This document shows positions 1,871-49,599 of a stretch of 64,000 nt of DNA, in pieces. A model generated the notes under the pieces. The model was not told the origin of the DNA and did no database searches. It was given only the letters and a program-made list of their open reading frames with translations. Source of the DNA: Spirochaetia bacterium (GTDB lineage: Bacteria; Spirochaetota; Spirochaetia; SZUA-6; Bin103); contig CBDAOI010000002.1 of assembly GCA_965198005.1 (NCBI GenBank), positions 32,001 through 96,000 on the forward strand, read 5' to 3'. Positions within the stretch are counted from its first letter, which is position 1, and every line of letters starts with the position of its first letter. Both the position numbers and the translations under genes were made by a program.

Positions 1871-3685
1871 CTAGTTCCCCATCGACTCCTTCAGCTCACT
1901 ATCAATCCAGAGGCGGGCGAAGAATTGATTCCGTTCACCAAGTCCCATAGCCGATTCACCGTTATAGCCCTTGACCCACGGCTGGTTTACGCTGAACCTC
2001 GGGGCGATGGATTTGACCAGGCCAAAGTGCTGTCTTACGGTGATCTCATCGGCTTCTCTCATGATACGCTGAACGTCCTCGAGCTTGATGCTGTTCATGG
2101 CGGCGTCATGCAGATCCTTCAGACGCGTGCACTGTCTCTTGGTGTAGCTGTGGTCATCGATGTTTTGGCACATGTGTTGGATCCGACTTTGCCCTGCATC
2201 ATACCCATATCCTGCGCTCATAAAGTGCCACTCAGCCGTCTCGCTGCGCATCCTCGCTCCCACCTCAGCGTTGGCCTGCATGTCGAGCTCGCTTGCAACG
2301 CCAATGGCTTCGAAGTACCCCATGATGAGCTCTGGATGGGTTGGTTCGTACCTGTCGTGCAGGGCGAGCTTGACCTTGAACCTGACGCCGTCGGCGCCGC
2401 GCGGATAGCCGGCCTCATCGAGCAACGCTTCGGCCTCTTCCGGGTGATACTCATACTCACGCTTGACCTCTTCCGGCCACTCTTCATATGGCCAGGCCCA
2501 ACCTGTCTGAGTGTACAGCATCATCCCATACGGTGCCGGTCTTCCATGACCCCTGAAGTAGGCAGCGGATATCGTCTCGCGGTCCACTGCCATCTGTAGC
2601 GCCTTGCGCACTCTGACATCGTCCGTCGGCGACAGTTCGTGGTTGAAGAGGAAGCCTCCGTCTGCTCCCCGATAACTGGCCCAGACCTCGATTTCAGGGT
2701 TGGTCCGCTGGAGGGTCTCCAGATCGTCCATAGAGTATATCGCAGCATCTCCGGTGTTACTCATCATGTCGACCTTGCCCGTGCGCAGGGCCGCCAGGCG
2801 CGTTGACATGTCTGGCATGAGCAAGGCTCGGTACGTGTCGATATAGGGCAGGCGGTTCTGCGGGAACTTCTCGTCGTAGCCCCAGTAGTTGGGATTCTTC
2901 TCCCAGGTGGCAGAGCTGCCCTCCACCAACTCAACAAATTGCAGCGGCCCCGTACCGACGGTGTTCCTCCAGTCCTTGGCGTCGCCGTCCCTCTCGACCT
3001 GCTCGGGGCCGTGCACAAAGAAGTACGAACGGAGCATCTTGCCCAAAAAATCGTATGTGGGCTCCGCCAGCTTGATCTCCACCGTCCATTTATCGGTGGC
3101 CGTTACCGACTCGATCGTGGCACCCCAGGTGATACCTCTCACAGCGGCGTTAGGTCCGTCTTCGCTGAAATCGCCGAGGCCCAGATAACGGTGATAGTTC
3201 CATTCGATGTCATGGGCATCGAGCTCGCGACCGTTCATCGGCTCCTTGTCGTGCCAGTAAACGCCCTGACGGATGTGCCAGATGAACGTGGTGTCGTCGG
3301 GCATTGACCAGCTTTCAGCCAGAGCTCCCTGAATGATCGGTGGTCTCGCCGGCCCGTACTGTTGGTCGGTACCGTCCCATAGCTCCCTACTTACAGCCCA
3401 GTTGACGTTGGACATCTTCTCATTAACGCCACTGATAAGGTGAGGCGCCCAGCCAAGATTCCACCAGTTGTCGGAACTGGGAGGAAAGACCACAGTGGGC
3501 CAAGTGAGCGTCCCGCCATACTCCGGCGCGGTCACCATCTTGCCGGTGGACGGGTCGAGCACCATCTCCTTGTCCGAGGCGGCTGCCGACTCATCCTCGT
3601 CCGCACCGCTTGCCCAGAGGCCGGTTGCGGTCAGGGTGAGGCCAATCAGTACCGCCAGGCACTGCTTGAACATTGCGAAAAACAT
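1871..3685 (-). CDS. ABC substrate-binding protein, family 5 (DppA/OppA-like)
   Basis: Signal peptide ending LWASG; PEYGGTL, GALAESW, GTGP, NPNYW...LPYID, VRKALQMAVD motifs; start chosen after AGGAG. Confidence 0.9.
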   Translation of the reverse strand: MFFAMFKQCLAVLIGLTLTATGLWASGADEDESAAASDKEMVLDPSTGKMVTAPEYGGTLTWPTVVFPPSSDNWWNLGWAPHLISGVNEKMSNVNWAVSRELWDGTDQQYGPARPPIIQGALAESWSMPDDTTFIWHIRQGVYWHDKEPMNGRELDAHDIEWNYHRYLGLGDFSEDGPNAAVRGITWGATIESVTATDKWTVEIKLAEPTYDFLGKMLRSYFFVHGPEQVERDGDAKDWRNTVGTGPLQFVELVEGSSATWEKNPNYWGYDEKFPQNRLPYIDTYRALLMPDMSTRLAALRTGKVDMMSNTGDAAIYSMDDLETLQRTNPEIEVWASYRGADGGFLFNHELSPTDDVRVRKALQMAVDRETISAAYFRGHGRPAPYGMMLYTQTGWAWPYEEWPEEVKREYEYHPEEAEALLDEAGYPRGADGVRFKVKLALHDRYEPTHPELIMGYFEAIGVASELDMQANAEVGARMRSETAEWHFMSAGYGYDAGQSRIQHMCQNIDDHSYTKRQCTRLKDLHDAAMNSIKLEDVQRIMREADEITVRQHFGLVKSIAPRFSVNQPWVKGYNGESAMGLGERNQFFARLWIDSELKESMGN

Positions 3686-3823
3686 GAATATGTCTCCTAT
3701 TTCCTCGAGAGCACGAAGTTCAGTGCCGGCCCCTCGCCTGCTCTCGAGGCATGCCTGCAATCGCAGGTCACCGGAAAGCGAGGGCGACACGTTCGGGTCC
3801 GGGCCCGGGGTGGTGGTGGGGAG

Positions 3824-3850
3824 TTAGTCGTATCCGGTCTTGGGTGGCAT
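3824..3850 (-). CDS. Putative leader peptide MPPKTGYD
   Basis: AGGAGG 7 nt upstream of ATG; ends TAC GAC TAA as in the paralogous leader at 26308. Confidence 0.55.
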   Translation of the reverse strand: MPPKTGYD

Positions 3851-4341
3851 CCCGTTTCCTCCTGTGCGCGGTGCGAACGTCGACCGCTTGTGCGACCGTA
3901 GCACGGACCCGCGACTCGGGTCAACCACCTGCACCCCTGCACAGCAATTCTCGGTGAACGGCTGGTAGAGGGGCAGAGTGTCATAAGCTCAAGCCCTCCG
4001 TATGTGAAATGCGACCATGCCCCACCTGTTGGCCCACCGCGTGAATGCACGACCCAATAATACCCATTCCTCCCGTGAAAGGCATGCACCGGACGGCCCG
4101 ACCCGGCCCGACCCGGCCGAACTTCTATAACTGATTGCAGGTGAAGTAGTTAGCCACCGTCATGCCAGCCCGGTGCGATGACCTGACCACCGTCAGCCAC
4201 CGCCGGTCGGCCGATGCCGCGGGCTGGCGCGGTGCGGCGATCGGCCCTTCGGGGCCGGTTGCCCGCGCGCCGCCGGCACACCTGCGCCGCAGCCCCAGTC
4301 AGGGATCGTTCAGGGAGCAGGTTCAGTTCCCCAGGGAGCGG

Positions 4342-5640
4342 CTACCCGGACAGCGGCTGCGGCGGCGAGTTCATCCGCACCAGCACCTGGTCCCACGACC
4401 GGATCAGGAATAGCCGGAACGTGGCGCGGATCGCGCCCCAGAACTCCCGGCGCGACCCGAACCCAGCCCGCACCTGCTGATTCAGACCGTCCACCAGCTC
4501 GAATATCTGGTGCATGAAATAGGCCAGCAGGTTGAGCACGAAGAACGCCTCCGACAGGTACTTGTCACCGTGGCCGAAGTTGTGCTCCAGGTGATAGCCC
4601 TGGTTCTTCAGCGTATTGAACCCCTCGTTCTCGATCTTCCAGCGTGCCCGTCCCGCACGCACGATCCGCGCGACGCTTCCAGCGGTGGGTACCAAGTCGG
4701 TCACCCAGGCGTTTCGATAGGTGGTCGTGCCGGCCCGTACGATGCGGTAGTGCACGAAGTTGATCTGGGGACTGCGGGGGTTGCCGTTCAGCGGCACCCC
4801 GGTAACCCACTCGTATTCATGCCGGTCCCCGGTCGCGTCGATGGTGCAGTGGTGGTCCAGCAGCCGACCGCGGCGCAGCCCGTCGATATCCTGGTACAGG
4901 CTGGTGTGATCCTCCGGCTTGGCCACCAGCAGAAACGAGAAGCGGGCGGCGCGCACCTGTTCGATGAACGGTTGCTTGGAGTACAGACTATCGGCGACGA
5001 TCACCGCAGCCAGCCGGGGATGGTCGTTACGGATGCGCTGCAAGGCACGGTAGCCGGCTTTTATTTCACAGTCCTGCTTGCGGCGTTTGGCATTCTTGGC
5101 GCCAGAGTCATCGGCGTTGTGAATGAACACGGGAGCCAACGGCAGCACCTGCCGCTTGTCGGGGTGGACGATGGCGGTCTGCAGGATGTCGTGGTGGTAG
5201 CGTACGGTGCCGTTCTTGGTGGCGGTCAGACAGCACTCACAGTTCACCTTGTACGAGCTGAAGTACTGGGAGCCGTCCATGGTGATGAGATAGCGACCGT
5301 CGAGGAACTGATAGTGCTGCAGCCATTTGGCGTCCTGCATGCGCCCTATCCAGTCGCCGAAGCAGCCGAGCAGCGGTTCATAGTCATGGCTGTCGAGCAG
5401 ATCGCGGAACTGGGAGTCGGCAGGGATCCGAGCGACCCCAAACGTAGAGTTGAGGTTGTTGGTGCGCAGTTCGTCCTGGAAGCGGCGTTGGAACTCCAGC
5501 ACGGAAGAGGAGATTCTGAAGGCATAGTCCGTATCTCGAACGTGACGACATTGATCAGTACCTGGCTTACGCCGCATGGAGGCTTGAGGAGCGCGAGGTT
5601 CCCCTTCGCCCGACCTCGGCATGAAGCTTCTGGTCGACAT
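4342..5640 (-). mobile_element. DDE transposase (ISNCY-like); N-terminus probably carries a small deletion
   Basis: ITMDGSQYFSS, CxCC, KQDCE, VADSLYS, GRARWKIENEGFNTLK motifs. Confidence 0.8.
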
Positions 5641-24373: not shown

Positions 24374-26170
24374 TCAGAATCCCATTTCTTCCTTTAGATC
24401 TTGGTCAATCCAAAGGTGGATGAGGACGCTACGTTCTCCCGCAATTTCCAGCTCCCATTCTCCGTTATAACCTTTGACCCACGGCTGGGCCACCTGATAC
24501 CTTGGAGCCATAGGACTATATATCTGATTGTGGTGCTTTATTATGGCCATATCAAACTCTTTAAATGCCCTCTGCTGCTCCTCAACGGTGGTAGCGGCGA
24601 AAAAGGCTTCATAGGCGGCGGTCATCTCAGGGGTGTCGACATCGCCGCCCATGTAATGGCGGACATGTCCACCCCCACGATACCAGCCTATCAACATTGA
24701 AGGGCTAAGATTAAAGCCCATGTCGCCAAGGGTCATGTGATAAATACCGTCGTTTCTACGATTGTACCAAGTAGGCCCGTCATACATATCGATCTCTACA
24801 TCAACGCCAATCGCAGCCCAGTAGCCGACAGCTATTTCTGCATAGCCTAAATCATCGACGATGACGTGGTCATAGTTGACCTTGAATCGAACGCCGTCCG
24901 CGCCGCGCGGATATCCAGCCTCATCAAGGAGCTTCTCGGCACCTTCCGGGTCATACCTGTAGTATTGCTTGACCTCTTCGGGAAAATCTTCAAATGGGGT
25001 GTAATACTCCGGGAGGGCATACCCTATCATCCCCATGGGTTCCCACTTTGCGTAACCGCCAAAGTAGGTATCGTTAATCGTCTCGAGGTCCAGCGCCATC
25101 TGCAGTGCGTGGCGAACCCTGACGTCGTCAAAGGGCGGCTTGTGTACGTTCAGACTAAAACTCCCAACCGCTCGCATGTAATATCCGGTCACCTGGACTT
25201 CGGGGTTGGTCCGCTGGAGGCTCTTTACCACGTCGAGGGTATTTACCGCCGCCGTGCCGGCATGTATTATATCAACCTGACCCGTGCGTAGCGCCGATAG
25301 ACGTGTTGCTTCTTCTGGCATATACAGGAGCCTTAACCGATCAATATAGGGCAAGCGGTTCTCCGGGTATTTTGGGTCGTAGCCCCAGTAGTCAGGATTC
25401 TTGTCCCAGGTAATAGAGACGCCTTCGACATAGTCAGTCAGCATAATGGACCCGGTGCCGACCACGTTCCTCCAATCCGCATAGTCGCCGTATTGCTCAA
25501 TTACCTCGGGGGGTAATATCCAACCCTGTATGTCGCTGAGGATAGCCTTCAGCGCACCGAGGTATGGCTCCTTCAGCTTGAAAACAACCGTATATTTGTC
25601 GGTGGCCTCTATCGATTCCCATGGCAGGTTGATCACCTCGTAAGTCTTGAGGGGACGTTCGGTGAAGTCGCCCTGAACGGTATTACGCTGAAAGGTATAC
25701 ACGACATCATCGGCAGTTAGCTCCCGACCGTTCATCGGTGGCTTATCATGCCAGTGAACGCCCGGGCGGATGTGGACGACGATCGTTGTGTCGTCGGGCT
25801 GCTCCCAGCTTTCCGCCAGACTCCCTGTAGTGGCAACAGTGGGATAGCTGAAATTGGTTGTAAAGTCCCACAGGTCCCTATCTATTGACCAGTCCCCCCA
25901 GGCGAGCTTCTCATTAACGCTACCAATGAAACGGGTCGCAGGGTGGCCAGTAATAAAGGGGTCAGTAGTCTCGGCCTTTGATAGGTCGGGATAGGTTAAT
26001 GTCCCGCCATACTCGGGCGCGGTCACCACCTTGCCGGTGGCGGGGTCGGTCACATAATTCTTGTCGGCAGCGGCTGCCGGCGCCTCTTCTGCGCCGGTGG
26101 CCCACAGGCCGGCTGCGGTCAGGGCGAATCCAATCAGGATCGCCACGCTCTTTTTTACCATATTGGTCAT
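24374..26170 (-). CDS. Family-5 ABC substrate-binding protein
   Basis: 598 aa, LWATG signal, complete motif set. Confidence 0.92.
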   Translation of the reverse strand: MTNMVKKSVAILIGFALTAAGLWATGAEEAPAAAADKNYVTDPATGKVVTAPEYGGTLTYPDLSKAETTDPFITGHPATRFIGSVNEKLAWGDWSIDRDLWDFTTNFSYPTVATTGSLAESWEQPDDTTIVVHIRPGVHWHDKPPMNGRELTADDVVYTFQRNTVQGDFTERPLKTYEVINLPWESIEATDKYTVVFKLKEPYLGALKAILSDIQGWILPPEVIEQYGDYADWRNVVGTGSIMLTDYVEGVSITWDKNPDYWGYDPKYPENRLPYIDRLRLLYMPEEATRLSALRTGQVDIIHAGTAAVNTLDVVKSLQRTNPEVQVTGYYMRAVGSFSLNVHKPPFDDVRVRHALQMALDLETINDTYFGGYAKWEPMGMIGYALPEYYTPFEDFPEEVKQYYRYDPEGAEKLLDEAGYPRGADGVRFKVNYDHVIVDDLGYAEIAVGYWAAIGVDVEIDMYDGPTWYNRRNDGIYHMTLGDMGFNLSPSMLIGWYRGGGHVRHYMGGDVDTPEMTAAYEAFFAATTVEEQQRAFKEFDMAIIKHHNQIYSPMAPRYQVAQPWVKGYNGEWELEIAGERSVLIHLWIDQDLKEEMGF

Positions 26171-26307
26171 GGTTCTCTACCTCACATCAAATAATTGTTG
26201 AGAGCACTGATTCCACTGCCGGCCCCTCGCCACGCTCGCCTGCGAGCGCACTCTCATAAGCGAGGGCGACACTTTTAGCGGCCGAGGCCGCTCGGTCCCG
26301 AGCCGCG

Positions 26308-26328
26308 TTAGTCGTACGGAGATTTCAT
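26308..26328 (-). CDS. Putative leader peptide MKSPYD
   Basis: AGGAGG 6 nt upstream; ends TAC GAC TAA, 138 nt before the binding-protein start. Confidence 0.55.
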   Translation of the reverse strand: MKSPYD

Positions 26329-26710
26329 CTCTTGCCTCCTTTGACCTGGGCATGCCGCACAACACCACGCGGGGTGGGGGTGCGGGCCCCTTGAGCGAGT
26401 GGACTCGTGGGGTTTGCGGCCAACAGGGTTGGCCGTTAGACGCGCGGACGCGTTGCGGCCGACGCGGTCGGCCGTTGGGCGCATGGATGCGTGGCGGCTG
26501 GGTGCCACGCAGATCGATGGTGCCGCGCTCAGCACCGGCGCCGGGCGGTCGGCTGGGCCGGGTCATGTCGTTACCCATACACCTGCAGCTTAGACCAGCG
26601 CGAGGTATGTAGCAAGCGCTTCGGGCTGCGCTGCGTGGCAGCCTCATCGCCCGCCGCGCGACTGCTAGCCGGGGGCTGGGGTGGAGCGCGTGGGTCCCCA
26701 TACGCGGACT

Positions 26711-26739
26711 ACTATAGCCGGCCGCCCGGGTTATGGCAA
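26711..26739 (-). promoter_or_regulatory. Sigma70-like promoter TTGCCA-17-TATAGT
   Basis: Exact 17-nt spacer; spacer sequence conserved with the 18333 copy. Confidence 0.6.
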
Positions 26740-26751
26740 GCACTTCCCTGG

Positions 26752-46209: not shown

Positions 46210-47994
46210 CTAATAACTCATTGCTTCCTTCAGCTCACTATCAATCCAGAGGCGCTCGAGAGGGGGAGTATAGCCGTTGAGGTAGAAATCACCGTTAAAC
46301 CCTATGACCCACGGCTGGGTTCCGCCAAATTGGGGAACTTTAGGACCCCATATGTACCAATGCTGCTCTATGATGTACATATCTGCCTCTGCAACCAGCC
46401 TCTGCTGCTCCTCAACGGTGGTGGCGGCCATGGCGGCTTCAGCCATGGCGTCAAACACAGGGTCCTGGTGTCCAGTGCGGTTGTTGTAATTTCTCGAGTG
46501 AATCCTGTCCATCAGCCCACCGGGGGACCAGTCCACACCGAGATCAATATAGGTCATACCTTCATAAGTACCTTCCCTTACTAGCTGCGAACGAAAAGCC
46601 CCGTCACCTGTATAAATCTCTACATCAACGCCAATCTCAGCCCAGTATTCAACGGCTATTTCTTGATAACCTACATCCCAAGAGGGCAGGTAGAGACGGA
46701 AGGTCTTGAATCTAATGCCATCCGCGCCACGCGGATGCCCAGCCTCATCAAGCAACGCTTCGGCACCTTCCGGGTCGTAGTCAAAGACCTTCTTGACATC
46801 TTCGGACCACTCTTCAAATGGGACGTAATACCCCTTCAGACCATCCCCTATAACCCCCTGAGGCTTCCAACTTGCAAAACCCTGGAAGTAGGTATTGTTG
46901 ATTGTCTCCAGGTCAATTGCCATCTGCATTGCCTTGCGCACCCTGATGTCGAGAAAGGGCGACGGGTGGCGCAGGTTAAAAGCACTAGGGGTCTCCGACC
47001 GAAACGCAGACGGCCATAGCACGATTTCGGGGTTGGTACGCTGGAGACTCGCTGCCTGGTCGAGAGACCGTAATTGAGTGCTGTCGGGACCTATGTAATC
47101 AATCTTACCCGAGCGCAATGCCGCCAGACGTGTTGCTACCTCTGGCATAATCAGCCGCCTTAACTGGTCAATATAGGGCAAGCGGTTCTCCGGGTACTTT
47201 TCGTCGTAGCCCCAGTAGTCAGGATTCCTGGTATAGGTCAGAGAGGTGCCCTTGACCCAGTCAGTCAGCATATAGGGCCCGGTGCCGACTATGGTCCTCC
47301 AATCCTCAGCGTTGCCGTGTTCCTCGATTACCTCGGGGGGCAATGTGACAGCGGCGCGGTTCAAGAGCATAATAAGCGGCGTATCTATGCGTGGCTCCTT
47401 CAGCTTCACAACAACCGTATATTTGTCGGTTGCCGTTATCGATTCGAATGGTATGGAGGCGATTGCGCCAGTAACGGGGCCTGGTCCGACTTCGCTGAAC
47501 TGGCCCAGACCCGCATTACGTTCAAAGTTATATGCGACATCCTCGCCAGTTAGCTCCCGACCGTTCATCGGTGGCTTATCGTGCCAGTGAACGCCCTGAC
47601 GGATGCGGAAGATATAGGTTGTGTCGTCGGTCATTTCCCAGCTTTCCGCCAGCTTCCCTGTTACGACATGTAGAGGCATGTAAGGGTCTGTAAAGCCATA
47701 TTCGTCCCTATCTATTGCCCAGTTCCCCATGCCTAGCCTCTCTACAACGTCCTCAATGGCCCTTGGCGACCCGGACCAGGGGTCAGCATGCGGAGGCTCG
47801 ACCCCATCGCTGTAGGTCAATGTGCCGCCGTACTCTGGCGCCACCACCACCTTCCCGGTCGTGGGGTCGGTCACGTACTTCTTGTCGGCGGCGGCTGCCG
47901 GCTCCTCTTCTGCGCCGCTGGCCCAGAGGCCGGTTGCGGTCAGAATCACGACCAACGCAACCGCGAAGGTCATTCTGATTTTTACAATGTTCAT
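46210..47994 (-). CDS. Family-5 ABC substrate-binding protein
   Basis: 594 aa, LWASG signal, complete motif set. Confidence 0.92.
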   Translation of the reverse strand: MNIVKIRMTFAVALVVILTATGLWASGAEEEPAAAADKKYVTDPTTGKVVVAPEYGGTLTYSDGVEPPHADPWSGSPRAIEDVVERLGMGNWAIDRDEYGFTDPYMPLHVVTGKLAESWEMTDDTTYIFRIRQGVHWHDKPPMNGRELTGEDVAYNFERNAGLGQFSEVGPGPVTGAIASIPFESITATDKYTVVVKLKEPRIDTPLIMLLNRAAVTLPPEVIEEHGNAEDWRTIVGTGPYMLTDWVKGTSLTYTRNPDYWGYDEKYPENRLPYIDQLRRLIMPEVATRLAALRSGKIDYIGPDSTQLRSLDQAASLQRTNPEIVLWPSAFRSETPSAFNLRHPSPFLDIRVRKAMQMAIDLETINNTYFQGFASWKPQGVIGDGLKGYYVPFEEWSEDVKKVFDYDPEGAEALLDEAGHPRGADGIRFKTFRLYLPSWDVGYQEIAVEYWAEIGVDVEIYTGDGAFRSQLVREGTYEGMTYIDLGVDWSPGGLMDRIHSRNYNNRTGHQDPVFDAMAEAAMAATTVEEQQRLVAEADMYIIEQHWYIWGPKVPQFGGTQPWVIGFNGDFYLNGYTPPLERLWIDSELKEAMSY

Positions 47995-48155
47995 AGTAGC
48001 TCCCTATGTAGATGTTTCGAGAGTATTGCGTAGCGGATTGCCGCTCCCTGGCTACTCTGACGCCCGCAACCGCGGGCGCGCCCGCAAACGCGGACGGCCA
48101 GTCTGAGTCAAATTCCTGAAGCGCGCGGCGTGTGACTCACCGGGTTCACCCGGGC

Positions 48156-48191
48156 TCACGCCGCGCGCGCGTGCGGTTCTTTCAGTATCAT
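48156..48191 (-). CDS. Putative leader peptide MILKEPHARAA
   Basis: AAGGAGGTG RBS; 3' end lies in a 12-bp inverted repeat GCGCGCGGCGTG...CACGCCGCGCGC. Confidence 0.5.
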   Translation of the reverse strand: MILKEPHARAA

Positions 48192-49599
48192 CTTCACCTC
48201 CTTCTTGGGGCACAGGGTGCCCTGCCAGATGGCTGACATAAGATGGGATCCGCGTGCGCGGCCCATCATGCGAACGCCCACCGCTCGGCGGACGTCGGGA
48301 CCTGCGTCACAACGCCACGCGGGGCGGTGGTCGGCCGAGCAACGAATGTGGTTGACCGGCGACGTCGGCGGTCGGTTCTGTGACGGTGAGTTGGGGGGCG
48401 GGGATCCCGGACCGTTGCGGTCGTAGCCGGCCGCTACCCCGGTGCTGAGGGCGACGGCGTGCGCGGGGGCACGTACGGGGCGATCAGCCGGAGCGGCTAG
48501 TTGTTTCTCGGTTCGAAAAAGTGTGTGTGTGTGGGGGGGGGGGGGGGACTCCTCACCATTAAGCAAGCGCGCCGCGAGCTGATTTTCAGCAAATCTCGGC
48601 GAGCGGCTGTCAGGGGAACAGAGTGTCATAAGCGTTGACGTGTTATAGGTCACTCAAGCCCTCCGCAGGTGAGGCACAGCTATACCCAGACCCAGATGTA
48701 GTCGCGATGTCGCGATTGACTGCATCCCACCCTATCATAACCTCCGCCCCCGAGGACATCAACCACGAATCGGCCCAGCAATTCTCGGTGAACGGCAGTC
48801 GATGGCCTGAAGAGACAGTCTGGGGGGCCCCCCATTTGTCAACCCCCGCCGCGAAAGGATTCCGGGGGGGCAAGGGTAGGACGCGCCGGTTGCGTTGCCC
48901 CTAACCGGTGGCAGCGCTGAGTAGTGTTTTCAGCCATCTTTTGCATCCGTGAAACCTGAGCCGTTTACTCTGCCACCCCTGCGGCAAACACGTCAACAGG
49001 AAAAACTGGCGAATTGAAGGTTTCTTGAGATTTCGTTCGGGCAGCCGCGGCAGCCGAGAGCCCCTCGCGGCGCCGACTCGGGCGCATCGCCCCTCCGGAG
49101 CCGTCATTCGCCGGCGATGTGGTCGTCCGCAGGCCGTTCACCGTCCACGTCGGCCTCACAGCGGCCCGCTGAGGGCCTTCCAGCCCCTCGGGGGTAAGCC
49201 TGGGGTACCCCCTGCAACACCCGTCAACGCCGATTCCCGGCACCGCTGGCTCCGTATTGACCGCGCCGCCACCGCCCGCAGCCCAGCCTGGTCGGGTCGC
49301 AGCCACCTCCAGGACCAGCTACTAGCGACGGCAGACCTCCTCGAGCGTCAAGCCGCCGCTCCGTCAGTCGGCGCGCGCGGGGGGAATGGGCCGTTGCTGC
49401 GGCCGTCGCGGCGCTCCGGAGGTGCAACCGCGAGCCGCTCGCCGGTTGAGTTCGAGGCTGCTCGGACAGGAGCGGCAGCACGAGCGCCGCCGCGGCGACG
49501 ATCTCGGCACTCGGACCCGTTCAGGGCCGGCATTCACCGCCGATTGGCCGGCAGCGGGCCGCTCGGCGTCCGAGTCGGCCTCATAGCGGCCCCCTGACG

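Follow-up and report, generated by a model that had tools for sequence, protein, structure and literature searches.

A modular 5' leader with a mini-ORF and a covarying pseudoknot upstream of paralogous SBP_bac_5 genes in one spirochaete genus

The window analysed here is a 64,000-nucleotide (nt) stretch of the genome of a Spirochaetia bacterium (C2:32001-96000; 4.89 Mb in 4 contigs, 66% G+C, 90% complete). It carries two minus-strand genes for substrate-binding proteins (SBPs) of the SBP_bac_5 family, with start codons at 3685 and 26170, each preceded by a leader built from the same parts. A first-pass annotation of the window had described, ahead of both genes, a strong AGGAGG, a very short open reading frame (ORF) ending in TAC GAC TAA, the shared arms of an outer stem and a second pairing that involves GAGAG(C/U). 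All of these were confirmed at both sites by reading the minus strand. The two leaders, called copy A and copy B, contain the parts given below, where mini-ORF denotes the very short ORF (the asterisk stands for its stop codon), P1 is the outer stem, S2a and S2b are the two strands of the second pairing (S2), P0 and P2 are hairpins before and inside P1, and the YD class comprises the mini-ORFs ending in Tyr-Asp.

Copy A:
3858..3863, minus strand: Shine-Dalgarno sequence AGGAGG of the mini-ORF, read from the sequence, 7 nt before the ATG
3824..3850, minus strand: mini-ORF MPPKTGYD* (ATG CCA CCC AAG ACC GGA TAC GAC TAA), YD class
3791..3823, minus strand: C-rich spacer from the mini-ORF stop to the outer stem, read from the sequence
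3777..3790, minus strand: 5' arm of P1 (GUGUCGCCCUCGCU), from RNAalifold and pair counts
3754..3767, minus strand: optional inner hairpin P2 (CCUGC GAUU GCAGG), from fold prediction
3739..3746, minus strand: pseudoknot strand S2a (CGAGAGCA), abutting the 3' arm of P1 on its 5' side, with compensatory changes
3724..3738, minus strand: 3' arm of P1 (GGCGAGGGGCCGGCA) with a 2-nt bulge, from RNAalifold and pair counts
3706..3713, minus strand: pseudoknot strand S2b (UGCUCUCG), with compensatory changes
3694..3698, minus strand: Shine-Dalgarno sequence AGGAG of the SBP gene, 8 nt past S2b
1871..3685, minus strand: SBP_bac_5 gene, 604 amino acids (aa), with signal peptide, ATG at 3685, Pfam E=2.3e-59

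Copy B:
26335..26340, minus strand: Shine-Dalgarno sequence AGGAGG of the mini-ORF, read from the sequence
26308..26328, minus strand: mini-ORF MKSPYD*, YD class, read from the sequence
26278..26307, minus strand: P0, predicted G+C-rich hairpin region between the mini-ORF and P1
26259..26272, minus strand: 5' arm of P1, from arm match and RNAalifold
26251..26255, minus strand: S2a GAGAG, 5' of the inner hairpin, read from the sequence
26217..26231, minus strand: 3' arm of P1, from arm match and RNAalifold
26200..26207, minus strand: S2b (GUGCUCUC), from the sequence and pair counts
24374..26170, minus strand: SBP_bac_5 gene, 598 aa, ATG at 26170, Pfam E=3.8e-71

From the last base of the mini-ORF stop to the A of the SBP start codon there are 139 nt in copy A and 138 nt in copy B, as first described. 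Both SBPs have signal peptides and permease genes downstream (two permease genes come next after the SBP gene of copy A), and their mutual identity is only 44%. Without mismatches, the 14-mer GTGTCGCCCTCGCT and the 15-mer GGCGAGGGGCCGGCA each occur in the window only at copies A and B; the remaining arm matches listed have 3 mismatches each, which is about the shuffled expectation. Both copies have the interior GAGAG(C/U) and, further downstream, GUGCUCUC; relative to the inner hairpin, GAGAG is on the 5' side in copy B and on the 3' side in copy A, where it touches the 3' arm of P1. Ten bases separate the 3' arm of P1 from S2b in copy A, whose single-sequence fold lengthens S2 to 11 base pairs (bp) and whose C-rich spacer is kept among copies neither in sequence nor in length. 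The predicted P0 helix of copy B begins 4 nt past the first base of the stop codon.

P1, as predicted by RNAalifold, has 11-12 bp with a 2-nt bulge, and in S2, of 8 bp, a GAGAG(Y)A inside the loop of P1 pairs with a U(R)CUCUC outside it; S2a and the 3' arm of P1 are at most one base apart. Since the two pairings cross, they make up one H-type pseudoknot; the two separate pairings of the first-pass annotation are thus both real, but they belong to a single structure. The inner hairpin P2 is optional and variable, being missing from short copies and different in sequence in other subfamilies. Single-sequence folds of the two window leaders gave z-scores of -0.13 and -1.79, which are uninformative because such folding ignores pseudoknots.

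A paired-arm search of the whole genome found 26 copies, and 22 of these (alignment A1) were used to build the covariance model R1, which has 52 matches in the genome at E<=0.01. The two copies noted at first are genuine, but they are members of this larger set. Forty-four of the 52 matches lie directly upstream of an SBP locus on the same strand, and the other eight lie beside truncated SBP remnants or beside none under the distance rule used. By tblastn count, the 4.9 Mb genome has 151 paralogous loci of one SBP_bac_5 family, which is an extreme expansion for one binding-protein family. Median pairwise identity among the leader-bearing SBPs is 46.7% (40 proteins, 780 pairs), indicating that the duplications are old, and the leader arms are near-invariant.

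Within the same genus, R1 matched 6 of 10 other genomes (6 to 48 matches each), and it matched none of the 13 sister-genus genomes and none of the 17 from other families of the order. A second covariance model, R2, was built from 101 matches, and searches over more than 40 genomes were run with stricter filters; R2 had no match in 150 other genomes of the phylum (88 genera). The related records that bear the motif carry the title 'MAG: Spirochaetia bacterium' (MAG, metagenome-assembled genome). Among SBP homologues with 40-66% identity in other MAGs ('MAG: bacterium', Dehalococcoidia), the motif was present at 2 of 52 loci, both from 'Spirochaetia' MAGs. A pattern scan of metagenome contigs from the Joint Genome Institute (JGI) returned 12 loci, including two identical sequences that are full matches (58.3 bits each) and the locus L172 (22.4 bits, E 5.6e-05), which is without most of the third loop and S2b; nine further loci were rejected as chance hairpins. 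The sequencing runs that contain the flagged stretch include sponge metatranscriptomes. Against Rfam 15, neither the 64 kb window (at gathering scores) nor nine copies (at E<=5) had a match, in agreement with the first impression that the element is not a recognised one. Literature searches returned no description of the leader, nor of a mini-ORF (sometimes a mere start-stop) joined to a pseudoknot.

Two other arrangements were seen upstream of SBP homologues outside the genus. In the Dehalococcoidia MAG OY761144.1 (L054, L059, L068, L070, L072), tandem repeats with (V)VKEV.VPGETV-like units stand in frame before SBP homologues of 40-60% identity, suggesting a repetitive N-terminal linker instead of a leader RNA. 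MAGs of lower G+C content (OZ242383.1, CBDBHR01; L052, L056-L058, L062-L066) have their own repeated block (...GGCTGACCGTGGCA.ACGTCGTGTCTGC.GC...), sometimes duplicated, upstream of SBP homologues; it looks like repeated signal-peptide-like segments and not like the pseudoknot leader.

The pseudoknot was evaluated on alignment A2, which comprises 101 matches (98 distinct rows, 7 genomes) and was fitted to P1, with S2 outside the search model. For P1 and S2 together, 93.3% of cells pair and compensatory changes occur at 14 of 20 pairs (104 cells), a result reached by none of 500 shuffles; slid controls gave 29-56% pairing. S2 alone is paired in 90.3% of cells with 7 of 8 pairs compensatory (78 cells), again reached by 0/500 shuffles, and this result is not circular because S2 is absent from the search model. 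One S2 pair is U-A in 42 copies vs C-G in 31, and another is A-U in 37 vs G-C in 27. In P1, compensation between genomes takes CCC/GGG to CCU/AGG or CCG/CGG and U-A to G-C. Some of the unpaired S2 cells are due to the subfamily of copy B, which has GAGAG 5' of P2 and another strand aligned in the S2a columns; in copy B itself, the model alignment places GAGCGU (26238-26233) there. The leader is therefore a well-supported structured RNA with crossing, covarying helices, and the conserved RNA structure proposed from two copies is borne out for both the outer stem and the second pairing. A nested alternative, which joins the 5' arm of P1 to S2a and the 3' arm of P1 to S2b, was rejected: 89.4% of its cells are pairable, with compensatory changes at 0 of 11 pairs and a score no better than that of shuffles. 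Such a fold could still occur as a transient conformer.

These data also bear on a non-regulatory origin, in which the element would be a dispersed repeat, mobile DNA or coding sequence that extends the SBP at its N-terminus. The high copy number, a GTG within the motif that 8 of 52 copies have in the SBP reading frame, and the shuffling of leader classes relative to SBP bodies would suit it. However, a dispersed repeat is expected in either orientation and in varied contexts, and here orientation and distance to the SBP start are fixed. The arm-to-arm spacings (24, 25, 28, 38, 41, 42, 52, 53, 54 and 66 nt) do not keep to multiples of three, most copies are out of frame or contain stops, and the base changes are compensatory. 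We consider this origin excluded in practice.

Conserved structured RNA upstream of functionally related genes is a feature that the leader shares with riboswitches. The pseudoknot could be an aptamer of the riboswitch kind, or the operator for a protein that binds RNA, and could control SBP translation alone in response to a shared metabolite or factor; the mini-ORF would then be an accessory for mRNA protection or ribosome delivery. The helices covary, unpaired positions are strongly conserved (the bulge and an A-G-U-G after P1), many copies per genome adjoin a ribosome-binding site, and some have the pseudoknot and no mini-ORF. The P1 sequence, however, is conserved beyond what is usual in riboswitch stems, and the element was found in one genus only and lacks an Rfam match. 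Moreover, a sister leader (described below) keeps the topology and S2 but has another P1 and third loop, so that no common pocket is evident. We regard an aptamer or operator acting alone as possible but doubtful.

The sister leader is a very uniform second type (alignment A3) with the same pseudoknot topology and the same S2, in which P1 and the third loop differ. The pattern GAGAG...CUCUC is present upstream of 60 of 107 SBP loci without an R1 match, compared with 49 of 5000 random 350-nt segments. Its upstream ORF (uORF), preceded by a Shine-Dalgarno sequence, reads ATG ATA CTC AAA GAR CCN and then either stops at TAG (MILKEP*) or goes on for five codons into a long hairpin; the uORF ends at or within this hairpin. 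The structure then has a 5-bp outer stem (CUGGC/GCCAG) round a hairpin, GAGAGUA directly before GCCAG, a loop hairpin and UACUCUC. Synonymous variation in the uORF (CTC/CTG, GAA/GAG, CCN) suggests, at the codon level, that MILKEP* is translated; a stop after a proline codon is slowly decoded according to an excerpt of PMC3082878. BLAST located the sister leader in 7 of 10 genomes of the genus; the 30 other genomes searched gave no match. The window contains one copy, in which a long hairpin follows the uORF:

about 47995-48205, minus strand: sister leader, upstream of the SBP gene 46210-47994
48191-48156, minus strand: uORF ATG ATA CTG AAA GAA CCG CAC GCG CGC GCG GCG TGA, after AAGGAGG
48101-48097 and 48052-48048, minus strand: outer stem CUGGC / GCCAG
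48059-48053 and 48025-48019, minus strand: S2a CAGAGUA / S2b UACUCUC

By script rules, the 125 intact paralogues divide into 57 with the sister leader, 38 with the pseudoknot leader matched by R1 and 30 with neither. The first-pass annotation had proposed control of individual transporter cassettes. This does not agree with the distribution: the same core stands before 44 paralogues and the sister leader before another 57, so that the signal is more likely shared than specific to a cassette. With more than 100 transporter genes under the same two leader types, the input is probably global and not the substrate of each transporter; translation capacity or a shared factor or metabolite would be examples.

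The mini-ORF was scored by script as AGGAGG, with one mismatch allowed, then a spacer of 4-9 nt and an ORF no longer than 9 codons. This unit is present in 70 of the 101 aligned copies, and nearly all of the genome's own leaders have AAGGAGG followed by a tiny ORF, so the strongly initiated micro-uORF seen at two sites is a recurring part of the leader. Its classes include start-stop ORFs (ATG-TAG or ATG-TAA), MQN*, MQK*, MSK*, MKSPYD*, M-x-P-K/R-T-G-Y-D*, MKHPTGYD*, MQTLTVYD*, and the GTG-started MKL*, MKP* and MKR*. Since the peptide varies across the family, the Tyr-Asp ending is a trait of one subfamily and does not define the family. The earlier claim of Tyr-Asp-stop conservation thus holds inside the YD class, with variation of the kind expected for a translated peptide, and fails for the whole family, which ranges from ATG-TAG to 8 codons with unrelated peptides. 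Among the 29 distinct instances of the YD class, Gly is written with each of its four codons, Thr with ACC or ACG and the stop with each of its three; TAC GAC does not vary, and the sequence past the stop is scrambled and unalignable. This codon pattern suggests a translated peptide under constraint.

Upstream of the mini-ORF, at 60-130 nt from its Shine-Dalgarno sequence, 51 of 101 leaders in the genome and its relatives have a conserved inverted repeat, CCGGCGTTGCCGG followed by (T/C)CACTCA..TTCGCTGCG. It may serve as an operator, form a hairpin at the 5' end of the transcript or belong to a promoter. Copy A, with a transposase gene bordering its upstream region, lacks the repeat.

The word attenuator in the first-pass annotation, if taken as transcription termination, is not borne out by the two window copies, because scans of 3500-4350 and 26100-26750 found no terminator-like hairpin with a U tract. 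The mini-ORFs, with 1-8 codons and without codon runs, do not resemble leader peptides of the trp/his type. A single conserved arrest peptide of the TnaC or SpeFL type is not seen either, as the peptides range from M* to MxPKTGYD* and are conserved within classes only. Attenuation of the TnaC kind would have a nascent peptide ending Tyr-Asp-stop sense a small molecule, stall and block Rho at a C-rich site, so that the SBP operon is transcribed. Rho is encoded in the genome (698 bits), a C-rich, G-poor tract directly follows the stop in copy A, and the YD-class peptide is apparently under selection. Yet the peptides of 1-8 residues are unrelated between classes, C does not outnumber G across the family in the 60 nt before the motif (C 0.33, G 0.35 in 101 copies), the stop lies only 11-17 nt before P1 in 23 copies, and the conserved pseudoknot would be left without a role. 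This mechanism appears very improbable.

The leader could also be constitutive, without any switch: a ribosome bound near the 5' end and a stable structure would stabilise the mRNA and boost the SBP over the downstream permeases. A strong Shine-Dalgarno sequence is kept even where the start is ATA, CTA or GTA or where the ORF is only ATG-TAG, which fits a ribosome-binding rather than a coding role. A constitutive leader would likewise agree with the lack of compensatory pairs in the alternative pairing and with Shine-Dalgarno masking that is no better than its control (see below). Mere ribosome binding, however, does not need the codon-level conservation of the YD and MILKEP classes, and an elaborate pseudoknot with conserved loops exceeds the needs of a stabiliser. 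A bound ribosome blocks the 5'-end-dependent attack of RNase J and RNase E/G, and neither enzyme was found in this 90%-complete genome, in which RNase Y is present. We therefore think a purely constitutive role unlikely.

The reading we prefer, tentatively and with a probability of about 0.45, is that of a modular 5' leader, found here in one genus only and placed before paralogous SBP_bac_5 genes, in which ribosome occupancy of the mini-ORF governs the folding of the pseudoknot and thereby SBP translation. The order of parts is a strong Shine-Dalgarno sequence with a mini-ORF of 1-8 codons, P0 in many copies, the H-type pseudoknot and the SBP ribosome-binding site. What has been observed is the structure with its covariation, the copy number, the constant position and strand relative to the SBP genes, and the repeated presence of the mini-ORF. 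The leader would act at the level of translation. Strong Shine-Dalgarno pairing, perhaps together with slow termination, would retain a ribosome on the mini-ORF, and this ribosome would keep the first downstream helix (P1 or P0) open; the state of that helix would decide whether the pseudoknot forms beside the SBP ribosome-binding site, and its formation would set the loading of 30S subunits there.

The geometry of the leader is consistent with such coupling. In 23 of the 70 copies with a mini-ORF, the stop precedes the first P1 pair by 11-17 nt without any hairpin in the gap, and in the other 47 the predicted hairpin P0 mostly begins 3-16 nt past the stop, although this measure of post-stop helices lacks a shuffled control and G+C-rich spacers fold readily. 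From these distances, a ribosome on the mini-ORF should hold the first downstream helix open, and in the 23 short-gap copies the mini-ORF ribosome and P1 should, on this model, be mutually exclusive. At the other end of the leader, S2b lies 12-36 nt before the SBP ATG in 99 copies, with the SBP Shine-Dalgarno sequence 1-21 nt past S2b and at least three of its four bases paired in 42% of 99 local folds.

Several findings, along with the missing control just mentioned, weigh against this coupling. Masking of the SBP Shine-Dalgarno sequence by S2b, seen in 52 of 99 folds, compares with 45.1 of 99 when S2b is shuffled and has no specific support. The mini-ORF unit was not found in 31 of 101 copies, many of which keep the Shine-Dalgarno sequence but have an indel or a non-canonical start; some copies of the MKD* class retain the frame with ATA, CTA or GTA at the start position. 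One subfamily (L151, L155, L046, L113, L114, L118, L139) has no Shine-Dalgarno-like box in the inspected upstream stretch. Thus the pseudoknot can exist without a mini-ORF. In favour of the reading, RNA-library contigs of 321 nt, one each from runs X2 and X3 (one study), match 3536-3856 with 0 differences and join the SBP 5' end, the leader and the mini-ORF; being assembled and possibly derived from DNA, they attest presence and are no strict proof of transcription or of a transcript end. For the same reason, and since both come from one study, the contig end at 3856 cannot be used as a transcript start. Lastly, leader class follows the SBP tree only weakly, so some of the similarity among leaders may stem from recombination or gene conversion. 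On a FastTree tree it changes 46 times, compared with 51-57 times in five shuffles; the nearest paralogue has the same class in 68 of 125 cases (chance 0.35); and SBPs that are 83% identical can carry different leader types (e.g. C4:142920 and C4:1968816). Leaders, seemingly together with signal-peptide modules, seem to have been exchanged among paralogues. Patchy conservation combined with compensatory changes nevertheless indicates selection on the fold despite possible recombination.

A bolder version, which we hold to be rather improbable, adds specificity to the same coupling. In it, a ribosome 'parked' on a start-stop or few-codon ORF would move the pseudoknot switch, and the different peptide endings (Tyr-Asp-stop, Asn-stop, Glu-Pro-stop) and the two outer-stem types would be swapped regulatory classes, each responding to its own small molecule or release-factor state at the peptidyl-transferase centre. 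If this were true, the symbiont could retune whole sets of uptake systems by leader exchange.

Near the two window copies, a few further features were recorded. A gene for a DDE transposase (432 aa, minus strand) occupies 4342-5640, upstream of copy A. Positions 3942-4080 have high depth in the RNA-library contigs of three runs (X3, X16, X19) and may be the multi-copy end of an insertion sequence or a small RNA. Runs X16 and X19 have almost no cover of 3697-3862, from which no inference is drawn. A scan for sigma-70-like promoters found none near copy A, and a site TTGCCA-17-TATAGT lies at 26739-26711, about 370 nt upstream of the mini-ORF of copy B.

About a hundred of the 151 paralogous SBP genes carry one or the other leader, and the sensed signal probably governs much of the nutrient uptake of this bacterium, which belongs to an uncultured, sponge-associated group. 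The leader is also short enough for in vitro study of how ribosome occupancy of a few-codon ORF could drive an RNA switch.

Several known systems share parts of this design. The E. coli tna leader encodes the TnaC arrest peptide and has an adjacent Rho site. An excerpt of PMC3082878 assigns a role to the C-terminal proline of TnaC. As in tna, a short upstream ORF precedes the operon, the ribosome terminating on it would determine what becomes of the downstream genes, and the uORF of the sister leader ends with Pro-stop. Unlike tna, the peptides here are of 1-8 residues and vary, a general C-rich site is lacking and about a hundred genes are concerned instead of one operon; the pseudoknot, absent from tna, is the most conserved part of the leader.

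SAM-II, preQ1-II and guanidine-III are pseudoknot riboswitches that act on translation. The leader resembles them as a compact H-type pseudoknot in the 5' untranslated region by a ribosome-binding site, with covarying stems and conserved loop bases. It differs in that its Shine-Dalgarno sequence lies outside the knot, its stems are unusually conserved in sequence, a mini-ORF stands ahead and no Rfam family matches. In rpsO/S15, the alpha operon/S4 and T4 gene 32, protein-bound pseudoknots serve as operators of single autoregulated operons. There, as here, the pseudoknot is just 5' of the ribosome-binding site and can trap or exclude the 30S subunit, but the spirochaete leader occurs in many copies, in contrast to single operons with a known protein partner.

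The ermC leader and the STAB-SD of cryIIIA are 5' stabilisers that depend on a ribosome. Upstream ribosome-binding sites (uRBS) have been surveyed in Sinorhizobium (PMC13285730). These systems and the leader have in common a strong upstream Shine-Dalgarno sequence, with or without a tiny ORF, whose ribosome occupancy rather than product matters. The leader differs from them in being coupled to a conserved pseudoknot and in having peptide-level conservation in some of its classes.

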